From: an uncultured Acidobacteriota bacterium | Lineage (GTDB): Bacteria > Acidobacteriota > UBA6911 > RPQK01 > JAPXNP01 | Assembly: GCA_963777605.1 (NCBI GenBank) | Contig: CAVZRV010000007.1 | Location: forward strand, 352,001 to 416,000 | Reading direction: 5' to 3' | Length of the DNA: 64,000 bases | Part shown: positions 1-16,315 of the stretch, piece by piece | Position numbering within the stretch: position 1 is the first letter of the stretch | How the letters are laid out: the number at the start of each line of letters is the position of its first letter | The notes under the pieces: generated by a model | Databases searched by the model: none | What the model was told of the DNA's origin: nothing | Seen by the model: only the letters and a program-made list of their open reading frames with translations | Position numbers and translations under genes: made by a program

Positions 1-2041
1 CCGACATCCGCTCGGCTTCGACCACCCGTTCGTAGGCGATGATTCCCGTGTCAGAGGTGACGACTATGTACCCGTCAACAAAGTCTTCGAAATCCGCCTC
101 CGAGAACAGCCCGTCGACGACCGTATCGTCCGGATTGGTATCGCGCGCCCAGGTAACGAAAACGGTACGCGAAGCCATCTGCCGGTTCGTACTGTCGATT
201 GCCACCCCGTCAGGTCCGTACAGGGTAATCGTGGCCGTCATCGTCTGGCGGTTCTTGTTCAAAAGCACAAGTTCAGTCTGCCGGCCGTCCAACACCTGGA
301 TTTCGGGAATCACGACCTTCTGGGAAGTTCCTGGAGAAGCGACCGCACCGTCCAACCGCGTCAGGAGCCGGTCCCCGGTCAGGAAGAAGCTCTTCAAGCC
401 GGCGACATCGCTGTCCACGTCGAACCAGCCTTCAATATCTCCGCCCGCCGCACTCTGCAGGATCTCGTCGGCTGTCTCCGCAAACTGGGTTTCGGCCGGG
501 ATCGCTACTTCACGAGGGTTGACGTATTCCACAACGTCTTCGGTGGCCGTGTCGTCCTGAAACTGGCCACCCGAGTTGCTGAAACCGGTGATCACGACAC
601 TGGCATCGTCAGGTTCCGGGTTGGTGATCGCTACCCCAGTGAACCAGGTGTTGTCGGAAAGCACCCGCTGGATCGAAAATTGGGTCGAGCTTTCGACAAA
701 CTCGAGGGCGTTTGCATTAAAGTCGGCCACCACCAAAGTCTGCCCGTTTGGAGTGAATCCGATTTGCAGTGGCGCCGAAGAAACAAACGTTCCGTCGGCC
801 CGCTCGACCGCCCCGCCCATCTGCGTGTAGCGCGGTACCTCGTTGGTTTCCAGGTTGTACGAAATCAACTCGTCTGAAATCGGAGTCGCCAGATACATCC
901 ACACCCCGTCCGCAGAAAAGGCCGGCTTCGAACGAGGCCGGAACTCACTCCTGAGCGGCGTGAACTTACGGGATTCGCCGGTTTCCGGGTTGATGAAGTA
1001 GAGTTCCAGGCTGCAGATGACGAGAAACTCGTTTTTCGGGGTCCAGTAAACTCCGGTAGCCGCCCCTCCTACCCAGTAACGGGCAAACTCCTCGGTTTCC
1101 AGGTCGAGCACCCAGAGTCGATCGGTCGCCAACTCGGGCACCTGCGACGTCGAACTGATCAGCTGGTCAGTGATGGCCAGATAACGTCCGTCCGGAGAAA
1201 TGATCATCGAGGTCGATGCCGAGAAGTCCTGATAGGGCTCACCGGTGGCGGCTCCTGTTTCCGGCGCATATTTCTTGGTGAGGGTAAAACTCTCCCGGTC
1301 AACCACTGCAATCGAATCCGGCGTTGCCACCTTGTCCAGGTAGTACGACCCGACCAGGGAAATGGCGATGAAGCTTCCGTCCGGCGCCATAGCCAGCCAT
1401 TGTGGCCTGGTCCCCTGGACGAACTGGACCCGGGGGGCAATCTCTTCGGCAGTCTCGAGGCTGAAGCGAATCAACTGGTCGGTTCCGGCGGATGCCACGT
1501 AACCAATCTTGCCGTCCGGAGAAAAGACGATGTTGTTGGCGAAAGAGAGAAACGTGTCGGCAAGATCGACGGTTCTCACCTCATTGGTGTCCATATCGAT
1601 CAGGGCAATCCGGGCAACGTTCTCACCGATGAAGTTGGGCGGCTCAGGGATGTTCCGCCTGAGGAGGAGGCAGGTGACCACGATGGTCTTGCCGTCCGGC
1701 GCCAAAAAGAGCTGATTGGGGTTGTCGCCGACCGTGATGAAATCGAGGATTTCTCCCGAGACCGGGTTGAACACCATGACCTTGTCCGACCCGGAGATGC
1801 TGATGAACGCCCTCGTTGAATCGGGGGCAAACACAAGGTTGGGAGCAAAATTCAAGTCGGTCGTCGAAGAAGATCCTGTTTTCGAGATTTCCAGGTTTCC
1901 CGAAACCACCGGGAGGAGATTGGTGTCGAAATGTAGAGTGTCATCTACATCGGCCAGGTTTACGTGCTCGTAGACTCTCTGACCATACAGGGGACCGATA
2001 CTCAGGAAAAGAGCTGCCGCCAGCAGCCATCTCAAAGCCAT
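1..2041 (-). CDS. Secreted YncE/YVTN-like beta-propeller surface protein, 3' end runs off the window
   Basis: Missing from the ORF track because no stop lies in the window. Manual translation from ATG 2041 gives MALRWLLAAALFLSIGPLYGQ (signal peptide) followed by propeller-like blades (FAPDSTRAFISISGSDKVMVFNPVSGEILDFITVGDNPNQLFLAPDGKT). The antisense shadow ORFs at 39, 576, 1509 and 1716 all share one frame, consistent with an unbroken gene. Confidence 0.8.
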   Translation of the reverse strand, partial: MALRWLLAAALFLSIGPLYGQRVYEHVNLADVDDTLHFDTNLLPVVSGNLEISKTGSSSTTDLNFAPNLVFAPDSTRAFISISGSDKVMVFNPVSGEILDFITVGDNPNQLFLAPDGKTIVVTCLLLRRNIPEPPNFIGENVARIALIDMDTNEVRTVDLADTFLSFANNIVFSPDGKIGYVASAGTDQLIRFSLETAEEIAPRVQFVQGTRPQWLAMAPDGSFIAISLVGSYYLDKVATPDSIAVVDRESFTLTKKYAPETGAATGEPYQDFSASTSMIISPDGRYLAITDQLISSTSQVPELATDRLWVLDLETEEFARYWVGGAATGVYWTPKNEFLVICSLELYFINPETGESRKFTPLRSEFRPRSKPAFSADGVWMYLATPISDELISYNLETNEVPRYTQMGGAVERADGTFVSSAPLQIGFTPNGQTLVVADFNANALEFVESSTQFSIQRVLSDNTWFTGVAITNPEPDDASVVITGFSNSGGQFQDDTATEDVVEYVNPREVAIPAETQFAETADEILQSAAGGDIEGWFDVDSDVAGLKSFFLTGDRLLTRLDGAVASPGTSQKVVIPEIQVLDGRQTELVLLNKNRQTMTATITLYGPDGVAIDSTNRQMASRTVFVTWARDTNPDDTVVDGLFSEADFEDFVDGYIVVTSDTGIIAYERVVEAERMS

Positions 2042-2091: not shown

Positions 2092-2379
2092 TTATGATTG
2101 ACGGGCTGCGATTCGAATTCTTTCAACAAGGCCACAACCCCAGAATGCATTCACCCGCCCAGCGATCATGGGAGCCAAATCGGCACAGGACGCCCATCCC
2201 TCGGCTTTTGCCTCCAACGTCAGGCGCCCCCCTTCCAGTGCGACCGGAACAAGGTTCCCGGCCAGTCGCTCTCCCACTATTTCAGGCCACAGTTCCTGGA
2301 GCAGGATCAGCGCAAGTTCAGGCTTTCGAGCTACCTCTCTTAAGATTGAAGGAAAACAGTCACGGAGTGGACGCATCAC
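2092..2379 (-). CDS. DciA/DUF721 family protein
   Basis: 95 aa with the WPEIVGERLA...PVALEGGRLTL...W pattern and a terminal VERIRI strand, typical of DUF721. Confidence 0.75.
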   Translation of the reverse strand: MMRPLRDCFPSILREVARKPELALILLQELWPEIVGERLAGNLVPVALEGGRLTLEAKAEGWASCADLAPMIAGRVNAFWGCGLVERIRIAARQS

Positions 2380-2380
2380 T

Positions 2381-3277
2381 TCAGTTCCCGGCTGGAAGTC
2401 GCCTTATTCGGTCGCCAAAGAATTCCGACTCCGGAACCTTCGCGTTCATCTCGATCATGTCCGGCTTGTAAGAAACAATCTTCCCAGCCGAATCAAGCCC
2501 CACCACCAGGCGCCCGAGAAAGCGTCCTCTTTCGACCGTATTCAGGACTACGGCATTCTGTACCTGGCTCGGGCGAGCCAGGAAGAACCGTCGTTCCATC
2601 GCGATTATTACGTAGATTTCGGGGTTGGCGTCCGCCAGTCTTTTCAGGACGTCACCGGGTAGATCGGCCAGCACTACGAGGAAGTCAGCTTCTTGAAGAA
2701 CCTTTTCCTTGATCCGGGCAACGGCTTCCAGAGGATCGATTCCCGAAAACCCCGAACGTGGAGGAACCCGGGCCGTGTCCGCCAAACCCAAAAACCCAAT
2801 CCGAACATCGGCATCCCCGACCCTTACCGTCTTGATTGCGTAAGGGGCCGGCGCAGCGGCGGAAGACGGGGCCTTCAGGTTAGTCGAGATCACCTCCGCC
2901 CTGGTGAGCATCACCTGCGACAAGGTGGGCCAGTAGTGGAGATCGTCCGCCGTGAGGTTGAAAACATCGACCGGGATCCTGTCCAGGGCCTCGGTCATGA
3001 GTTCGTTAATGGGAGTGGAGGCCGGGCCCGCAGGCCTGAAATAGCCTCCGGCGTCAACGCTGATCACCGGCCCCGCATGCTCCTGCCTGTAGTTGTCGAT
3101 GTAGCCGGCTCTCCGAGCCAGTCCCCCGGTGGGGTTGACCTTTCACCCACAAGGTTCGTGTGCGCCATGGACGTAGCCGGTAAAGAAAAGGGTGAGCTCA
3201 CCCTGCCCGAACAGGCTGCTTCCCGAGCCCACAACAAACAGGCCGACGACCAACGAAACCAGGAAACGAATCCGCAT
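2381..3277 (-). CDS. Secreted UshA/5'-nucleotidase-like probable selenoprotein (in-frame TGA at 3143-3145 read as Sec)
   Basis: ATG 3277 gives MRIRFLVSLVVGLFVVGSGSSLFGQGELTLFFTGYVHGAHEPCG*KVNPTGGLARRAGYIDNYR..VISVDAGGYF, in frame with ORF 2381..3067. The EPCG-U...GGLARR...VDAG pattern matches the UshA-like (seleno)protein N-terminus. Confidence 0.88.
3105..3142 (-). promoter_or_regulatory. Candidate bacterial SECIS element
   Basis: Downstream of the TGA lie GTC-AA-CCCC-ACC-GGGG-GAC and then the hairpin CTGGCTC-GGA-GAGCCGG, whose G-starting loop is 28 nt after the TGA. Confidence 0.55.
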
Positions 3278-3377: not shown

Positions 3378-3893
3378 ATGCACCAGACCCTGTTGCTCAA
3401 TGCGACCTACGAACCGTTGCAGATCGTTTCATGGAAGCGCGCCGTCAAAATGCACTTTCAGGAGAAGGTTGAGATCCTGGAGCACCACAACCGCGAAATC
3501 CGAAGCGTCCGGATGTCGATGAAAGTCCCATCGGTGATCCGCCTGGTCAGTTATGCGCAGATTCGCCGTCGCCACGTCGCAATTCGATTCTCGCGTCAGA
3601 ATCTCTTCGCCCGCGACAAGTTCCGCTGCCAGTATTGTGGCAGCCGTCTACCCTCTTCCGACCTCACCTACGACCACGTTTTACCGGTTGCCCGCGGCGG
3701 CCGAAAAACCTGGGAGAACATCGTCACATCCTGTATGCGCTGCAATCGGGAAAAGGGCAACCGCACCCCTGAGGAAGCGGGGATGCGCATCCTGAAGCGG
3801 CCCTCCGCCCCTCTCGGCTTCCCCGCGAAGATCCAGCTTCTTTTCCATCGGATCCAGGCTCCCGAGAACTGGCAAGCCTACATTTTCAGCTGA
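3378..3893 (+). CDS. HNH endonuclease (McrA-like/HNH_5)
   Basis: LLLNATYEPL N-terminus, then SRQNLFARDKFRCQYCG, DHVLPVARGG..WEN, CMRCNREKG. Start re-set to ATG 3378. Confidence 0.92.
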   Translation: MHQTLLLNATYEPLQIVSWKRAVKMHFQEKVEILEHHNREIRSVRMSMKVPSVIRLVSYAQIRRRHVAIRFSRQNLFARDKFRCQYCGSRLPSSDLTYDHVLPVARGGRKTWENIVTSCMRCNREKGNRTPEEAGMRILKRPSAPLGFPAKIQLLFHRIQAPENWQAYIFS

Positions 3894-5642: not shown

Positions 5643-6758
5643 ATGCACAGACTGGCGTTTACTGTGGGCGCGGGCGTTTTCCTGTTCGACTTTCTCACCA
5701 AGTGGATCGTCAAGAACACGCTGGCACTCCATTACTATCCCATCATCAACGGCTTCGTAACCCTTCAGTACGTCCGCAACGAAGGTATTGCGTTCGGCAT
5801 GTTCCGCAACCTTCAGAACGACTGGAAGCCGGTGATTCTGTCTGCAATAGCGGTCATTGCGATCGCTGTCGTCTGCTACTACATCCTTTCCCTGCCCCGC
5901 ACCGATCGGCTCATGTTCCTGGCGCTCGGACTCCTGCTGGGAGGAATCGCAGGCAATTTTCTCGACCGTGCGATGCACGGATACGTGGTTGATTTCGTCA
6001 CACTCCACATCTATGACTGGTTTGCCTGGCCAACCTTCAACCTGGCTGACACTGCGATTACCTGCGGTGTATTCCTGATCCTCATTCAAACATTCATGTT
6101 CGAGGACGAGCCATCGTCGAACCAGGGTCACTCCGCCGGCGCCTTGTTCCTTCCCCTGCTGCTTCTCTCGCCCAGCCCAGTCGCTACCGACCAGATCGTC
6201 CACCAACTGCAGCGGGAGTATGAACACATCCACTCCTTTCGGGCTGACTTCCGGCAGATCTTCAGGAGCCGGGGGATTGAGCAAACCGAGACCGGGATTG
6301 TTATGATGAAGCGTCCCGGAAAGATGTACTGGGAGTACAAAGAACCGAAACTCAAGATCTTCGTAGCTGATGGCAAAAAGACTTTCTTCTATGTTCCTGC
6401 TGACAAACAGGTGATTGTTTCCAGCCTCGACCTTGAAAACAGTGACTCTCCATTGCTTTTCCTGCTCGGCATGGGAAATATCGAGCGTGACTTCCTGGTT
6501 TCCCTCGAATCGGAGGACGGTCCAGAGGCCGCAGATACGCTCCTGCTCCGTTTGACGCCGAGAACTCCCCAGCCTGAGTTCTCTTACCTCTTGGCTGCGG
6601 TGGAGAAAGAGAAATACTGGATTCGCCGACTGACCGTGGTTGAGCCAATCGGGCAGGAGAACGAATACGTGTTGTCGAACGTCGAGCAGAATGTAGACAT
6701 TCCCGACAAGAGATTTCAATTCAAGATACCTTCGAACGCCGAAGTCATACAGCAGTAA
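5643..6758 (+). CDS. lspA-lolA: Fused signal peptidase II (LspA) and outer-membrane lipoprotein carrier (LolA)
   Basis: The N-terminal ~150 aa carry DFLTK, NEGIAFG, GNFLDR, VVDF and FNLAD (LspA). The C-terminal part carries SFRADFRQ, KRPGKMYWEYKEP, VADGKKTFFYVP..KQV and a terminal FQFKIPSNAEVI (LolA). No stop lies between them. Confidence 0.9.
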   Translation: MHRLAFTVGAGVFLFDFLTKWIVKNTLALHYYPIINGFVTLQYVRNEGIAFGMFRNLQNDWKPVILSAIAVIAIAVVCYYILSLPRTDRLMFLALGLLLGGIAGNFLDRAMHGYVVDFVTLHIYDWFAWPTFNLADTAITCGVFLILIQTFMFEDEPSSNQGHSAGALFLPLLLLSPSPVATDQIVHQLQREYEHIHSFRADFRQIFRSRGIEQTETGIVMMKRPGKMYWEYKEPKLKIFVADGKKTFFYVPADKQVIVSSLDLENSDSPLLFLLGMGNIERDFLVSLESEDGPEAADTLLLRLTPRTPQPEFSYLLAAVEKEKYWIRRLTVVEPIGQENEYVLSNVEQNVDIPDKRFQFKIPSNAEVIQQ

Positions 6759-9583: not shown

Positions 9584-10273
9584 TCAGATCGTCCGGCTGC
9601 TCCGGCCATGCTGTTTCGACTTCTGCTCGGCGTAGTAAGGACACAAGTCAGCCAGGAAACAGCTCTCACAGCGCGGATTCTGGGCCTTGCAGGTCTTTCG
9701 TCCGTGGAGAATCAGTCGGTGGGAATAGGCGATCCACTCCTCCCTCGGGACTTTGGCCATCAGGTCTTTTTCGATCCGGGTGGGATCACTGTAGGAAGTG
9801 AATCCCAGCCGCCGCGACAGGCGGCTCACATGGGTATCGACCACCACACCGTCAGCGATTCCGAACCAGGTACCGAGTACAACATTGGCAGTCTTGCGCG
9901 CGACACCGGGAAGCTCGAGCAGATACTCCATAGAGTCCGGAACCCGTCCCTCGAATTTCTCCAAGATGGCACGCGAGGCTCCAATCAGGTTCTTTGCCTT
10001 GTTGCGAAAGAAACCCGTGCTTCGGATCACTTCCTGGAGCTCCGTTTCCTCGGCGTCCGCCATTGAAACAGGATCGGGATACCTGCGAAAGAGATCGGGG
10101 GTCACCTTGTTAACGCGATCATCCGTACACTGGGCCGAGAGTATCGTGGCGACAAGCAACTGGAAGGGATTCTGGTGAACAAGGGCACAGTCGGCATCGG
10201 GAAATTCGCCCTGAAGCCTGGACAGGACCTCTTGAATACGCTCTCTTTCAGCCCGGCTGGATGTTCGCGGCAC
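9584..10273 (-). CDS. nth: Endonuclease III
   Basis: LVATILSAQCTD, HhH LPGVARKTANVV, VDTH and the C-x6-C-x2-C-x5-C [4Fe-4S] motif. Confidence 0.97.
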   Translation of the reverse strand: MPRTSSRAERERIQEVLSRLQGEFPDADCALVHQNPFQLLVATILSAQCTDDRVNKVTPDLFRRYPDPVSMADAEETELQEVIRSTGFFRNKAKNLIGASRAILEKFEGRVPDSMEYLLELPGVARKTANVVLGTWFGIADGVVVDTHVSRLSRRLGFTSYSDPTRIEKDLMAKVPREEWIAYSHRLILHGRKTCKAQNPRCESCFLADLCPYYAEQKSKQHGRSSRTI

Positions 10274-10344
10274 GGACTCATCTTAGCATTCCAGAAACCT
10301 CGATTGTGCAACTCGTCCCCCTTTTTCGAATCCTTACTGGTGTG

Positions 10345-10596
10345 ATGAAAGTGTCGGGGATCGCTGTATTCGCCCTCCTCGGGGGCTTCTTCCTACTGCT
10401 GATGGCCGGAATGGACAACGCTCAGGCCACCCTCAAATACAAGAAAGAGACCGGGAAGAAGTGTACCTTCTGCCACAACCAGATCCCCGAACCGGGAGAT
10501 GAAGACCCCCGACTGACCAAAGACGGGAAGAAGTTCAAGGAGAATGGTCACAAGCTGACCGAAGAACAGAAGCAGAGACCGGACTCAGTTCACTAG
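10345..10596 (+). CDS. Small secreted monoheme c-type cytochrome
   Basis: Signal peptide ending AQA and a single CTFCH heme motif; start re-set to ATG 10345. Confidence 0.78.
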   Translation: MKVSGIAVFALLGGFFLLLMAGMDNAQATLKYKKETGKKCTFCHNQIPEPGDEDPRLTKDGKKFKENGHKLTEEQKQRPDSVH

Positions 10597-12533: not shown

Positions 12534-13547
12534 TCACCACCACTGTGCCCGCACCTTTCCAACCAGCCTGCCCCGGTCCCCCGAGAGATTCATTCCGAAG
12601 ATCAGCAGGAACGCAACCAGGGCCGGCGCCCACTTCCAGTGCTGAGACAGAAGTGCCTGCAGGGAGGCAGCATCCCGAATCAGCAGCCCCAGACTGACCG
12701 CCGGCTCCTGAACTCCAACGCCGAGGAACGAGAGGCTGATTTCAGCGACCAGGAAGAGAGGCAGGAAAAACGTTGCCTGGACAACGAGGACACTGCGGCA
12801 GAACGGCAGAACGTGGCGCACGAGGATCCTGAAATCGGAGGCTCCGATCGACCGGGCCGCCAACACGTGTTCCCGTTCCCTGATGGCCAGTACCTGTCCT
12901 CGAACGACCCTCGACACGGTCGCCCACGAGATCACCACGAAAATGACCACCATCATCATCATGGCTTCCAATGGAGAGAGGTTCACAGGGTAAAGAACGC
13001 GCAGTCCCAGGATGAAGAAAAGCCCGGGAACGGCAAGGAAGAGATCACTGACCCGCATGATGATCCGGTCGGCCCAACCTGAATAGTAGCCGGAAAGAGC
13101 CCCGGCCAGGGTTCCGATCAACAGCGTAAAAATGATCGCGGTCAGTGAGGCCAGCAAGGAAAAGCGGACGCCGCTGAGGGTCCGCGAGAAGATGTCTCTC
13201 CCCAGAGAGTCAGACCCGAGCAGAAAGACCGGCTGGGCACAGTCAGCAGTTCCCCAGATCCGGAACGGAATCCAGGATCCCCCCAAAACCCCTTCCTGCC
13301 GGCACTCCGGGAACCATGTAAGGGGCACCCGAAGACGGCTGGAAGAAACGCCAGGCTCTCGCTCCAGGACGGCGAAGATCGGGAGCCTCGAGCCCCCAGC
13401 CCAGCCGAAGGTCAGACGGGAAGGAGGCTGGTTCGGCCACTCTCGAAACTGATAGTCGGGAGGTTGAGGAGCAAGCATCGGGAGCAGGAAGAGTCCCAGT
13501 AATCCAAGACCCAGCCCCAGACCTGTCCAGATAGCTCCCCGCGTCAT
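12534..13547 (-). CDS. Oligopeptide/dipeptide ABC permease (OppC/DppC-like)
   Basis: LGSDSLGRDIFSR, AARSIGAS EAA-like loop, SLSFLGVGVQEP. Confidence 0.92.
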   Translation of the reverse strand: MTRGAIWTGLGLGLGLLGLFLLPMLAPQPPDYQFREWPNQPPSRLTFGWAGGSRLPIFAVLEREPGVSSSRLRVPLTWFPECRQEGVLGGSWIPFRIWGTADCAQPVFLLGSDSLGRDIFSRTLSGVRFSLLASLTAIIFTLLIGTLAGALSGYYSGWADRIIMRVSDLFLAVPGLFFILGLRVLYPVNLSPLEAMMMMVVIFVVISWATVSRVVRGQVLAIREREHVLAARSIGASDFRILVRHVLPFCRSVLVVQATFFLPLFLVAEISLSFLGVGVQEPAVSLGLLIRDAASLQALLSQHWKWAPALVAFLLIFGMNLSGDRGRLVGKVRAQWW

Positions 13548-14470
13548 GGTTCTCTGACCCTCGGGTCGTTCAGACAGAGCACGATGTCGGCGATCAAACC
13601 GGCGCACAAAACCGCGACCGCGGCCGTCAGAACGGCAAATAAAGCTACGTAAAGGTCCCGTGACTGAATGGCATCGACAGTCAGGGCACCGAGGCCTGGC
13701 CAGCCAAATACTTTCTCGGCTACAACAGCGCCGCTCATCAGGCCGGCAAGGGTGACCCCTGCCATGGAGATCAATGGATTCGCGGCATTCCTCAATGCCT
13801 GGAACAGGATCCGATGTCGCGGAATCCCACGGGCAGCCGCGGAAGCGATGTAAGGCTGAGACAGGACATCCACGAGCTCTAGCCGCAGGATTCGCAGGAA
13901 AACTGCTCCGGAAGGTATGGCCAGAGTCAAAGCCGGCAACCAGACCTGGTAGATGTGTTCGCTGTCAAGGAAAGGTGACCAGCCCGACCAAATCGAAATC
14001 CCGAAGAGGAGGACCGCCGAGAGTACCGACGGCAACGACAGGGCGACGAGGGAGAGCACCAGGATCACCCGATCGAGCAAACCGCCGATCAGGGCCGCTG
14101 AGACACAGGCCAGGGGAACCGACCAGGACAAGCTGAAAAGGAGTGCCACCCCGGCCAGGAACAGAGTGAATTTCAGGCGCTCGATCACGAGTTGGAAGGC
14201 CGGGCGGTGCTGGGCAAACGAGTAGCCGAAATTGCCCCGAACTACCTGAGATAGCCACGCCAGGTACTGAGCCGGAAGAGCCTTCCGAAGGCCGAAATCC
14301 TCCCGGAGTTTCTCAACGGTCGCCTTCGATATGGTCGGGTTCAGTTCCATTTCGGTCAAGAAGTCCCCGGGGACGGAGCTGAAGAAAACGAATACGAGGA
14401 CGGAAAGGAGGAAGAGGGCGGGAATTGCTTCGAGAAGACGTCGTAAGACGAAACGAAGGATCGATTTCAC
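13544..14470 (-). CDS. Oligopeptide/dipeptide ABC permease (OppB/DppB-like)
   Basis: GTG start at 14470 overlaps the SBP stop (GTGA). ILRFVLRRLLEAIP..PGD, GNFGYSF, AAARGI and EKVFGWPGLG motifs present. Confidence 0.9.
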   Translation of the reverse strand: MKSILRFVLRRLLEAIPALFLLSVLVFVFFSSVPGDFLTEMELNPTISKATVEKLREDFGLRKALPAQYLAWLSQVVRGNFGYSFAQHRPAFQLVIERLKFTLFLAGVALLFSLSWSVPLACVSAALIGGLLDRVILVLSLVALSLPSVLSAVLLFGISIWSGWSPFLDSEHIYQVWLPALTLAIPSGAVFLRILRLELVDVLSQPYIASAAARGIPRHRILFQALRNAANPLISMAGVTLAGLMSGAVVAEKVFGWPGLGALTVDAIQSRDLYVALFAVLTAAVAVLCAGLIADIVLCLNDPRVREP

Positions 14471-16264
14471 GGCTCCGCCCTTGAGATCTTCCAGGACCGC
14501 GCCCACGCATAAGGAAACACCGATGCCACGTCGATGCTGCTCAGCCCCGGACTCCGCGCCAGCAGAATGTCTCGATGGACGAGCGGGATCAGGGGAACTT
14601 CCTCCGCCAGCAACCGCTGCACGCGGGAGAACAGCTCCACCTGGCGCCCTCGATCGACGGTAGCGCTGAGCTCTTCCATCACCTGGTCGATCTTCGAGTT
14701 CCCACTCGGGCGCCTCGCTCCGGTCCAGCCTCCAGACGTGCATGGCCCCGTCGGAGAGGAGCAGATCGCGCATCTGGAACGGTTCCAGCGGGAGGTCCAG
14801 GTTCATGATCGCTACGTCGAAGTCATGCGATCCCATAACCCGAGAAATCACCGAGCGGAGCTCCTCCTGGCGAACAGAGACCTCAATCCCGACTCGTGCA
14901 AGGTCCTGCCGGATCAGGCTGGCAATACGACCCTGGACGTCACCGGCCGAGGTCACCAGTTCGAACCGGACCGGGTTCCCCGCGGAGTCAACCAGCCTAA
15001 TGCCGCCTTCTATCCCGTGGAAAGAAAAACCTGCCTGGCGGAGAAGCTCATGTGCAACCTCAAGGCCGCTCTTCTCTGCCTCGGCAGGCAAATACCAACG
15101 GCTGTTGGCGGGGGAGATCAGCCGTTTCGCCTCGGTCGCCAGCCCAAGATAAACGTTGCGGACAATCGAAGATCGGCTCACGGCTGCGCTCAGCGCTCGA
15201 CGGAATCCCCGTTTCGAGAACCAGCTGTACCGAATCCTTGCATCCTCCTTCGTGGGCTGATTGAGGTTAAGACAGAAGAAGGTGACATTGCTGGAGGGTC
15301 CGAGTTCCCGGGTCACACAGACCTTGCGCTCTTCCAGTAACCGGAAGTCCTCAGGTCGAAGAAGCTGGTCGATAAGATCGAGCTGGCCCAGGTTCAGCCT
15401 CAAGACCTGGGCGTTACGGTCTTCGAGATAGAGCAACCTGACTTCATCGAGGTAGGGCAACTGGGCTCCGGACGAATCTGTCTTCCAGTAGTAGGGATTG
15501 CGCTTCAGAGTAGTGCCGATTCCCGGCTTGTGTTCGGCGACCATGAACGGACCGAGGCCCGCCATCTCGACAGGGTCGGTGCCGAGGGTCCACTTTTCCT
15601 CGATCGGTGAATCGCCTTCCTCTGATTCCAGCAGGTGCCGCGGAAGTACCGGGATGGTCGAGAGCACCGACTCAATCCCGGAAAAGGGTCGCGGCCAGCG
15701 CAACTCGATCTCTCCCGATGGGAGAACGGAAAATTTCAGCGGCTCGCCATAGATATAAGCCGAGTCTTTCAGCACGTTGGAGGACGCCGGGTCAAGAATA
15801 TTCTCCAGAGTGAACACCACGTCTTCAGGGCCGACCAAGACGCCGTCGGAAAAGCGCAGGCCCTGCCGCAGGGCTAACCGAGCACTGGTCCCGTCGGATC
15901 CAAATATGGCGTCGCAAACTCCAGGACCAACGGTTTGTGCGACGGGATCAAATTCCAGCAGGGTGCCGGTTGTCAGCATGACCAACAGCCGGGAACGGGA
16001 TTCTGAGGCGGCAAGATAGTTGAAGGTGTTGGGCTCACCGGCCAGCGCGTACCGCACGCTCCCACCGGGACGGCCCTGACAGGAGACTTCGAGCGCCCCT
16101 GCAGGAACCTCTCCCCGCCGGTCTGCTTCCGGAGGTCCTTCCGAACCGTTCCTTTCTCCGGAACATGCCCCCAGCAACAGAACCAGGATCAGCCAGCCCA
16201 GGACTGTTCCTGAAGGCCCCCACGGCAACCGAAGCTTTCGTGGCGGAGCCAGTGAATGTGTCAT
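14467..16264 (-). CDS. Family 5 ABC substrate-binding lipoprotein with a +1 frameshift near 14695 (probably a sequencing error)
   Basis: Lipobox LLGAC, EPNTFN, FSDG, GLGPF and RNPYYWK. The true C-terminus (IDQVMEEL..QRLLAEEVPLIPL) is in ORF 14467..14682. Confidence 0.88.
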
Positions 16265-16315
16265 AGTCGCAAAAGCATCGCTACTCTTCCCAGGCACCAG
16301 ACTGCGCCGACACCG

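Follow-up and report, generated by a model that had tools for sequence, protein, structure and literature searches.

A probable UshA-like selenoprotein gene, interrupted by an in-frame TGA, in an uncultured Acidobacteriota bacterium

The 64-kb stretch of DNA analysed here, hereafter called the window, carries on its minus strand (2381..3277) a genuine gene that has been mis-annotated, and whose internal 'stop' is almost certainly a selenocysteine codon. With high confidence, this UGA is predicted to be decoded as selenocysteine by means of a downstream SECIS element, yielding a putatively exported protein of 298 aa that consists of an N-terminal 5'-nucleotidase-fold domain only and is devoid of CxxCH motifs. 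The annotation is corrected accordingly: gene callers retained a 228-aa fragment deprived of both the signal peptide and the putative active site.

Results

The frame starts at an ATG (3277-3275, minus strand), opens with MRIRFLVSLVVGLFVVG...LTLFFTGYVHGAHEPCG and reaches at codon 45 an in-frame TGA (3143..3145) within H-E-P-C-G-*. It continues for 253 more codons up to a final TGA (2383-2381). The earlier note had described a secreted UshA-like C-G-U selenoprotein split by a TGA at 3143-3145 and continued for about 250 codons, and frame, motif and continuation were all confirmed. Read-through produces 298 aa, compared with 285-342 aa across the 52 aligned sequences described below. The P42-C43-G44-U45 motif (3143..3154, minus strand) contains the only Cys and Sec residues of the protein. 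A probable Sec-pathway signal peptide covers aa 1 to ~24 (3206..3277, minus strand), as judged from hydropathy and from low pLDDT values for aa 1-25; the N-terminus reads MRIR followed by a hydrophobic stretch, and such a stretch was found, on a hydropathy basis, in 49 of the 52 aligned sequences, window protein included. ORF calling with table 11 delivered just the 228-aa downstream ORF, the same fragment being deposited in the protein database (P0002), where a relative with 85% identity (P0003) is similarly shortened. No clear Shine-Dalgarno sequence was seen upstream of the start, and about 8 nt separate the end of a sigma-70-like site (3317-3288, minus strand) from the GTG/ATG start, which together suggest that the mRNA may be leaderless. 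This promoter-like site is a chance-level match, as is a terminator-like site at 3204-3189, and neither was retained.

As the earlier note had proposed, homologues were aligned and inspected at the TGA column. The protein search returned 91 matches, of which 51 near-full-length close ones were aligned with the window protein (52 rows), after exclusion of the self hit, five N-truncated, two C-truncated and 32 distant matches. Position 45 was Cys in all 51 close homologues, and full-length forms in protein databases were all of the Cys type. GTDB genomes were also scanned with a DNA pattern leaving the third base of the column codon free, which gave at least 120 loci; the codon was TGA in 103 of the 120 loci listed, TGC in 14 and TGT in three (17 Cys codons), and TGG (Trp) in none. 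These loci form a biased sample because the pattern fixes the spacing and several residues, and the invariance of PCG[C/U] among them is built into the search. One of the three TGT matches (L081) scored 14 bits and is probably due to chance. Judging by their record titles, TGA forms among the listed loci came from Myxococcota, Acidobacteriota (20 of the 24 loci of this phylum), Eiseniibacteriota, Fidelibacterota and others. An acidobacterial orthologue with 43% identity (L072) has TGA at the same codon followed by the same hairpin, and a TGA shared with a syntenic gene argues against sequencing error or recent decay. Additionally, the N-truncated database proteins P0104 and P0115 were near-exact matches of the TGA loci L100 and L112, respectively. 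Selenocysteine is nevertheless dispensable, since most full-length close relatives use Cys.

Within the window, 78 of the 636 TGAs are Cys-adjacent and by eye only that of codon 45 looked gene-like. Neither selA, selB, selC nor selD was detected among the 47 ORFs scanned in the window, nor any tRNA (ARAGORN), and Rfam gave no match over its full 64 kb. Likewise, ARAGORN found no tRNA-Sec in the 60 loci scanned out of the 120 listed. At least one acidobacterium has been listed as Sec-utilising (PMC12013277).

A candidate SECIS hairpin is located at 3105..3121 (minus strand), its loop starting 28 nt after the UGA. It reads CUGGCUC[GGA]GAGCCGG, with a 7-bp stem, a GGA loop (3114-3112) and an energy of -12.7 kcal/mol, and is of the family's '+28' type. 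According to the accessible text of PMC13188914, the bSECIS model allows a loop of 3-9 nt, a stem of 4-16 bp, a G within the first two nucleotides of the loop, a spacing of 16-37 nt and an MFE <= -7.5, and the window hairpin lies within these limits (loop 3, stem 7, GG, 28 nt, -12.7) according to a custom script, distinct from bSECISearch. Folding z-scores ranged from -0.14 to -1.9, and 24 of the 78 Cys-adjacent TGAs of the window, codon 45 counted, passed the same test, so the hairpin alone constitutes weak evidence. It is the covariation seen among homologues that sets it apart from a chance match.

Among the listed loci, with L081 dropped, the bSECIS limits were respected by 100 of the 104 TGA genes, that of the window among them, and by six of 16 Cys genes. 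Two hairpin types could be recognised in the 104 TGA genes, with the loop at +18/19 in 65, at +28 in 36, at both in one and at neither in two, whereas either type fitted just one of the 16 Cys genes; because the same data served to define the types and the relatives are non-independent, a p-value for this contrast would not be meaningful. In the 36 TGA genes that have CGG as the loop codon and lack the +18 signature, pairs involving third codon positions were Watson-Crick in 36/36, 31/36 and 27/36 cases, versus 24.7, 12.6 and 11.4 after shuffling. For 13 hand-picked plus-strand sequences, 95% of the cells were paired versus 28-53% in slid controls, with changes on both sides in four of eight stem pairs; two count-of-pairs covariation measures on these same 13 sequences did not beat shuffles (92/500 and 73/500). 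The earlier claim of a hairpin with a G-starting loop 28 nt downstream of the TGA is upheld, with its GGA loop, its energy and its synonymous-site covariation. The two alternative hairpins are 10 nt apart and both are embedded in the stretch coding for GGLARR (first 40 nt past the UGA, L001-L120). The UshA-like CxU family encodes two alternative SECIS hairpins within a single conserved peptide.

Two other readings of the TGA were considered. It could be a true stop, in which case the gene would be a pseudogene, an artefact of sequencing or the relic of a selenoprotein whose host no longer has the Sec machinery. The 228-aa database ORF would fit this, as would a 21-39 A.C mismatch in the window hairpin at a position that is paired in most relatives. 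However, the recurrence of TGA at this codon in the listed loci, acidobacterial ones included, the parallel shortening of P0003, a downstream frame that is intact at family length and a short end branch (0.08) make a true stop very improbable. Genome-wide reading of TGA as Trp (or Gly) can be regarded as next to excluded. Its one favourable indication is the presence of PCGW in three of 143 further representatives, which are known as annotated proteins only and may reflect TGA translated under code 4; it is opposed by the complete lack of TGG at this codon in the listed loci, by the Cys column of the 51 close homologues and by the terminal TGA of the gene itself, which falls at the normal end of the family, 1 nt before dciA. 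Selenocysteine insertion, which the earlier note had put forward, is by contrast supported by the Cys/TGA column, a covarying SECIS and a syntenic TGA orthologue.

The structure model had a pLDDT of 90.7, the short C43-U45 loop being at ~70. Its fold matched that of 2z1a (Z 30.6, rmsd 2.4, 265 residues aligned to 2z1a residues 28-327), for which a sequence match was also obtained (E 9.5e-6), and SoxB was matched as well (2wdc, Z 27.7, rmsd 3.0, 265 aligned). Pfam had no match for the selenoprotein. The substrate-binding C-terminal domain is absent, the protein ending at 298 aa (fold comparison, TMt 0.46). The eight residues that we take to be the canonical ligand and catalytic set of 5'-nucleotidases (DxH, DxGD, GNHE, H, GHxH) map to Y35, H37, G78, A110, D111, D205, E228 and R230 by alignment to 2z1a and 3ivd, and only one of the eight, H37, is kept. 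On the minus strand, Y35-V-H37 (3167..3175; column His in 2 of 52 rows) replaces the D-x-H metal motif, D75-A-G-G78 (3044..3055) replaces DAGD, F106-N-L-T-A-D-D-L113 (2939..2962) stands in the sequence alignment for xxxGNHEF, D205 (2663..2665; Asp in 50 of 52 rows) for the ligand His, and E228-R-R230 (2588..2596; Glu in 42 and Arg in 34 of 52 rows) for H-x-H. The motifs DAGGYF (aa 75-80) and FNLTADDL (aa 106-113), noted earlier as degenerate metallophosphatase motifs, are indeed so, and the loss of ligands is family-wide: metal-ligand columns were variable and both Cys/Sec positions fixed in 79 family members listed from the DNA scan. Both Cys positions were also invariant in 40 Cys-type fusions not picked by the DNA pattern. 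At the levels of sequence and modelled fold, the protein has lost both its dimetal centre and the C-terminal domain that binds the substrate, and it is predicted not to be a nucleotidase.

Four CxxCH motifs follow the UshA-like domain in 37 of the 80 listed loci with long flanks. Among 77 complete genes from the listed loci, 34 had TGA and hemes, 33 TGA without hemes, three Cys and hemes, and seven Cys without hemes. The heme domain of these relatives resembles cytochrome c554 (1bvb, E 4.6e-22; Z 10.3, rmsd 2.8, 121 aligned). Cytochrome c554 has one five-coordinate heme. The relatives' domain has three conserved His besides its four CxxCH; three distal His for four hemes suggest that one heme may be five-coordinate and open. 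Three database proteins of ~1200 aa (P0112, P0119, P0122) contain four heme motifs alongside CxC UshA-like domains, which were matched over two stretches in each protein.

The window protein, with no CxxCH, groups on a short end branch in a well-supported clade of ~300-aa proteins (support 99 in the 78-row tree, 100 in the 36-row tree), almost all heme-less and mixing TGA and Cys forms. Since the heme-bearing P0115/L112 is sister to this clade in the 78-row tree and nested within it in the 36-row tree, the 'loss' of the cytochrome is an inferred event. Neither the window nor the surroundings of 42 of the 43 heme-less loci listed contained a stand-alone c554-like gene, the exception (L008) being an N-gapped fusion. 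At 10261-10596 (plus strand), 7 kb from the selenoprotein gene, the window encodes a small secreted protein that has one CxxCH and may be a monoheme cytochrome. Seven loci (L013, L019, L026, L071, L087, L118 and L050) bear Enterobacteriaceae or Comamonas labels; five of them (L013, L019, L026, L071 and L050) group with myxobacterial sequences in the tree, so these labels may be wrong.

The gene is followed after 1 nt by dciA (2092..2379, minus strand), a linkage that recurs in six acidobacterial loci (L004, L024, L042, L069, L072, L032); given this recurrence and proximity, a failure to insert Sec could have a polar effect on dciA. A gene for a secreted beta-propeller protein (2..2041, minus strand) that runs off the window is syntenic in L072 and L032, and a divergent HNH endonuclease gene (3378..3893, plus strand) is syntenic in L072. 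Altogether, gene order is conserved between L072 and the window over five genes (tonB-like, HNH, selenoprotein, dciA, beta-propeller), with 36-58% identity. Around the 80 listed loci, of which 36 cluster representatives were scanned, neighbours were lineage-specific housekeeping genes (dciA, lptD/HU, ruvX/mltG, tsaD/secA, chemotaxis), and no redox or sulfur operon recurred in the 36 gene clusters scanned. Housekeeping neighbours that change by lineage suggest vertical inheritance and give no pathway.

Some peculiarities of these loci deserve mention. In L032 (8914-10092, minus strand), the UshA-like frame continues into dciA, probably through an assembly indel, and in L049 (1213-3008, minus strand) the upstream genes resemble proteins of what is presumably a His-Xaa-Ser system. 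In the window, a 371-aa ORF (5643-6758, plus strand) scores above the LspA and the LolA cut-offs of NCBIfam; either signal peptidase II and LolA are fused here, or an error has joined two separate genes. A 917-aa ORF (13544-16297, minus strand) similarly looks like a peptide ABC substrate-binding part joined to an OppB-like permease (aa 614-916).

Discussion

Selenocysteine marks redox-active positions. Our preferred interpretation, held with moderate confidence, is that the protein acts as a periplasmic Cys/Sec redox catalyst for which an inactive nuclease fold provides the scaffold; relatives would be wired to their fused cytochrome, and the window protein to a partner in trans. After its predicted export to the periplasm, the C43-G-U45 loop would be the working site. 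The selenolate of U45 would attack an oxidised sulfur or selenium compound or a disulfide substrate in that compartment, C43 would resolve the adduct into a selenenyl-sulfide, and an electron carrier would recycle the latter. This carrier may be the fused c554-like tetraheme domain in roughly half of the family members; in the heme-less acidobacterial clade, a stand-alone cytochrome or a Dsb-type relay could serve in trans. The earlier note had presumed that the fold is used for redox or metal chemistry. The tetraheme cytochrome fused in relatives, which the window sequence alone does not reveal, tilts this presumed use towards redox. Counting against a redox role are the heme-free state of the window protein and neighbours that belong to neither redox nor sulfur operons.

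CxC pairs can bind metals. The C-G-U motif could accordingly bind soft metals or metalloids such as Cu, Hg or As, in which case the selenoprotein would chaperone, sense or scavenge them in the periplasm. Metal binding would suit both the variable middle residue of the Cys forms (CGC, CDC, CEC, CPC, CSC) and the frequency of the heme-less form, seen in 33 of the 67 complete TGA loci listed. However, no metal-resistance or metal-transport genes recurred among the 36 gene clusters scanned, and the tetraheme electron carrier fused in 37 of the 80 loci is a better fit to electron transfer; we consider metal binding unlikely. A remodelled hydrolase or transferase appears equally unlikely. Its cleft would be lined by D75, D205, E228, R230, R250 and R252, and Sec would be the covalent nucleophile towards a phosphoester or S-sulfonate, in a SoxB-like manner without dimetal centre. 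The fold matches to UshA and to SoxB (2wdc) are in line with such an activity, as is the conservation of D205, E228, R250 and R252 in the close subfamily (50, 42, 50 and 51 of 52 rows). Yet these sites vary in the wider family (A20/H18/Q13 at position 205 and H32/G11 at position 228, among the 78 listed), the substrate-binding C-terminal domain is lacking, and hydrolysis needs neither a resolving Cys nor heme fusions.

Under the preferred redox interpretation, a bolder and tentative extension is that these proteins may form an unrecognised class of periplasmic selenoenzymes, in which a C-G-U redox centre, borne by a dead nucleotidase scaffold, is presented to a tetraheme wire resembling c554, either fused or in trans. 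If so, the class would reduce or oxidise sulfur or selenium species as a second solution parallel to MccSep, and would occur widely among myxobacteria, acidobacteria and candidate phyla; its minimal heme-free catalytic module would be represented by the gene of the window. As orthologues in the clade are small, heme-free, naturally Cys-containing and easily expressed, function is directly testable.

The UshA-like selenoprotein (COG0737, CxU) was tabulated by Zhang & Gladyshev in 2008, whose accessible text (PMC2398784) counts 76 Sec sequences in the GOS data and places the family among the 20 commonest marine selenoprotein families; the available portions of PMC9312934 and PMC13188914 list it too. 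UshA is not mentioned in the main text of PMC1976440 and PMC13326102. Acidobacterial sequences may already stand in the supplements of the published family lists. The window protein shares with the family so defined UshA homology, the CxU motif and the coexistence of Sec and Cys forms. No definitional difference was apparent in the accessible text of these three sources, which gives no detail on function, architecture or SECIS; the assignment to this described CxU/CxC family made in the earlier note was right. Our literature search, with most subscription journals outside its reach, found no functional study of the family.

Among NCBIfam models, the best match was the equivalog NF041198 (UshA_like_PCGU, 519 positions), which shares PCGU and aligns over profile positions 16-272 (E 2.9e-28), with a score of 98.7 bits that is below the cut-off of 275. 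Its positions ~349-519 match the tetraheme domain of relatives, a domain absent from the window protein, and only two of 11 relatives scanned, both heme-fused, passed this cut-off. NF049981 (UshA_like_Sel_2, 262 positions) is of similar length and of the same fold family (E 2.6e-10); the score of 40.2 bits is below its cut-off of 140, and its motif is CxxU, according to the accessible text of PMC13188914, instead of CxU.

The fold is shared with the N-terminal domain of 5'-nucleotidase/UshA (2z1a, 1ush, 3ivd) and with SoxB (2wdc), at Z values of 27.7-30.6, and the GGxARR, DxG, SxN and GxxLG elements are common to 5'-nucleotidase/UshA and the window protein. In contrast to these enzymes, the latter has its dimetal ligands replaced, no C-terminal domain and an added CxU loop. 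With the multiheme selenoenzyme MccSep/ExtKL, the resemblance is a functional analogy only, based on catalytic Sec and c-type hemes: in the accessible part of the report (bioRxiv 10.1101/2025.11.18.688581), a Sec nucleophile attacks sulfur or selenium substrates, a precedent for the chemistry proposed here, and the scaffold is different, with five hemes including a Cys-ligated one, unlike the heme-free window protein. The similarity of MccSep/ExtKL to the heme domain of relatives is weak (E 0.004). The UshA-like selenoprotein family itself has been listed since 2008 and is modelled in NCBIfam; the window protein is a selenoprotein of this known kind, and its heme-less acidobacterial variant is one that current NCBIfam models do not catch.
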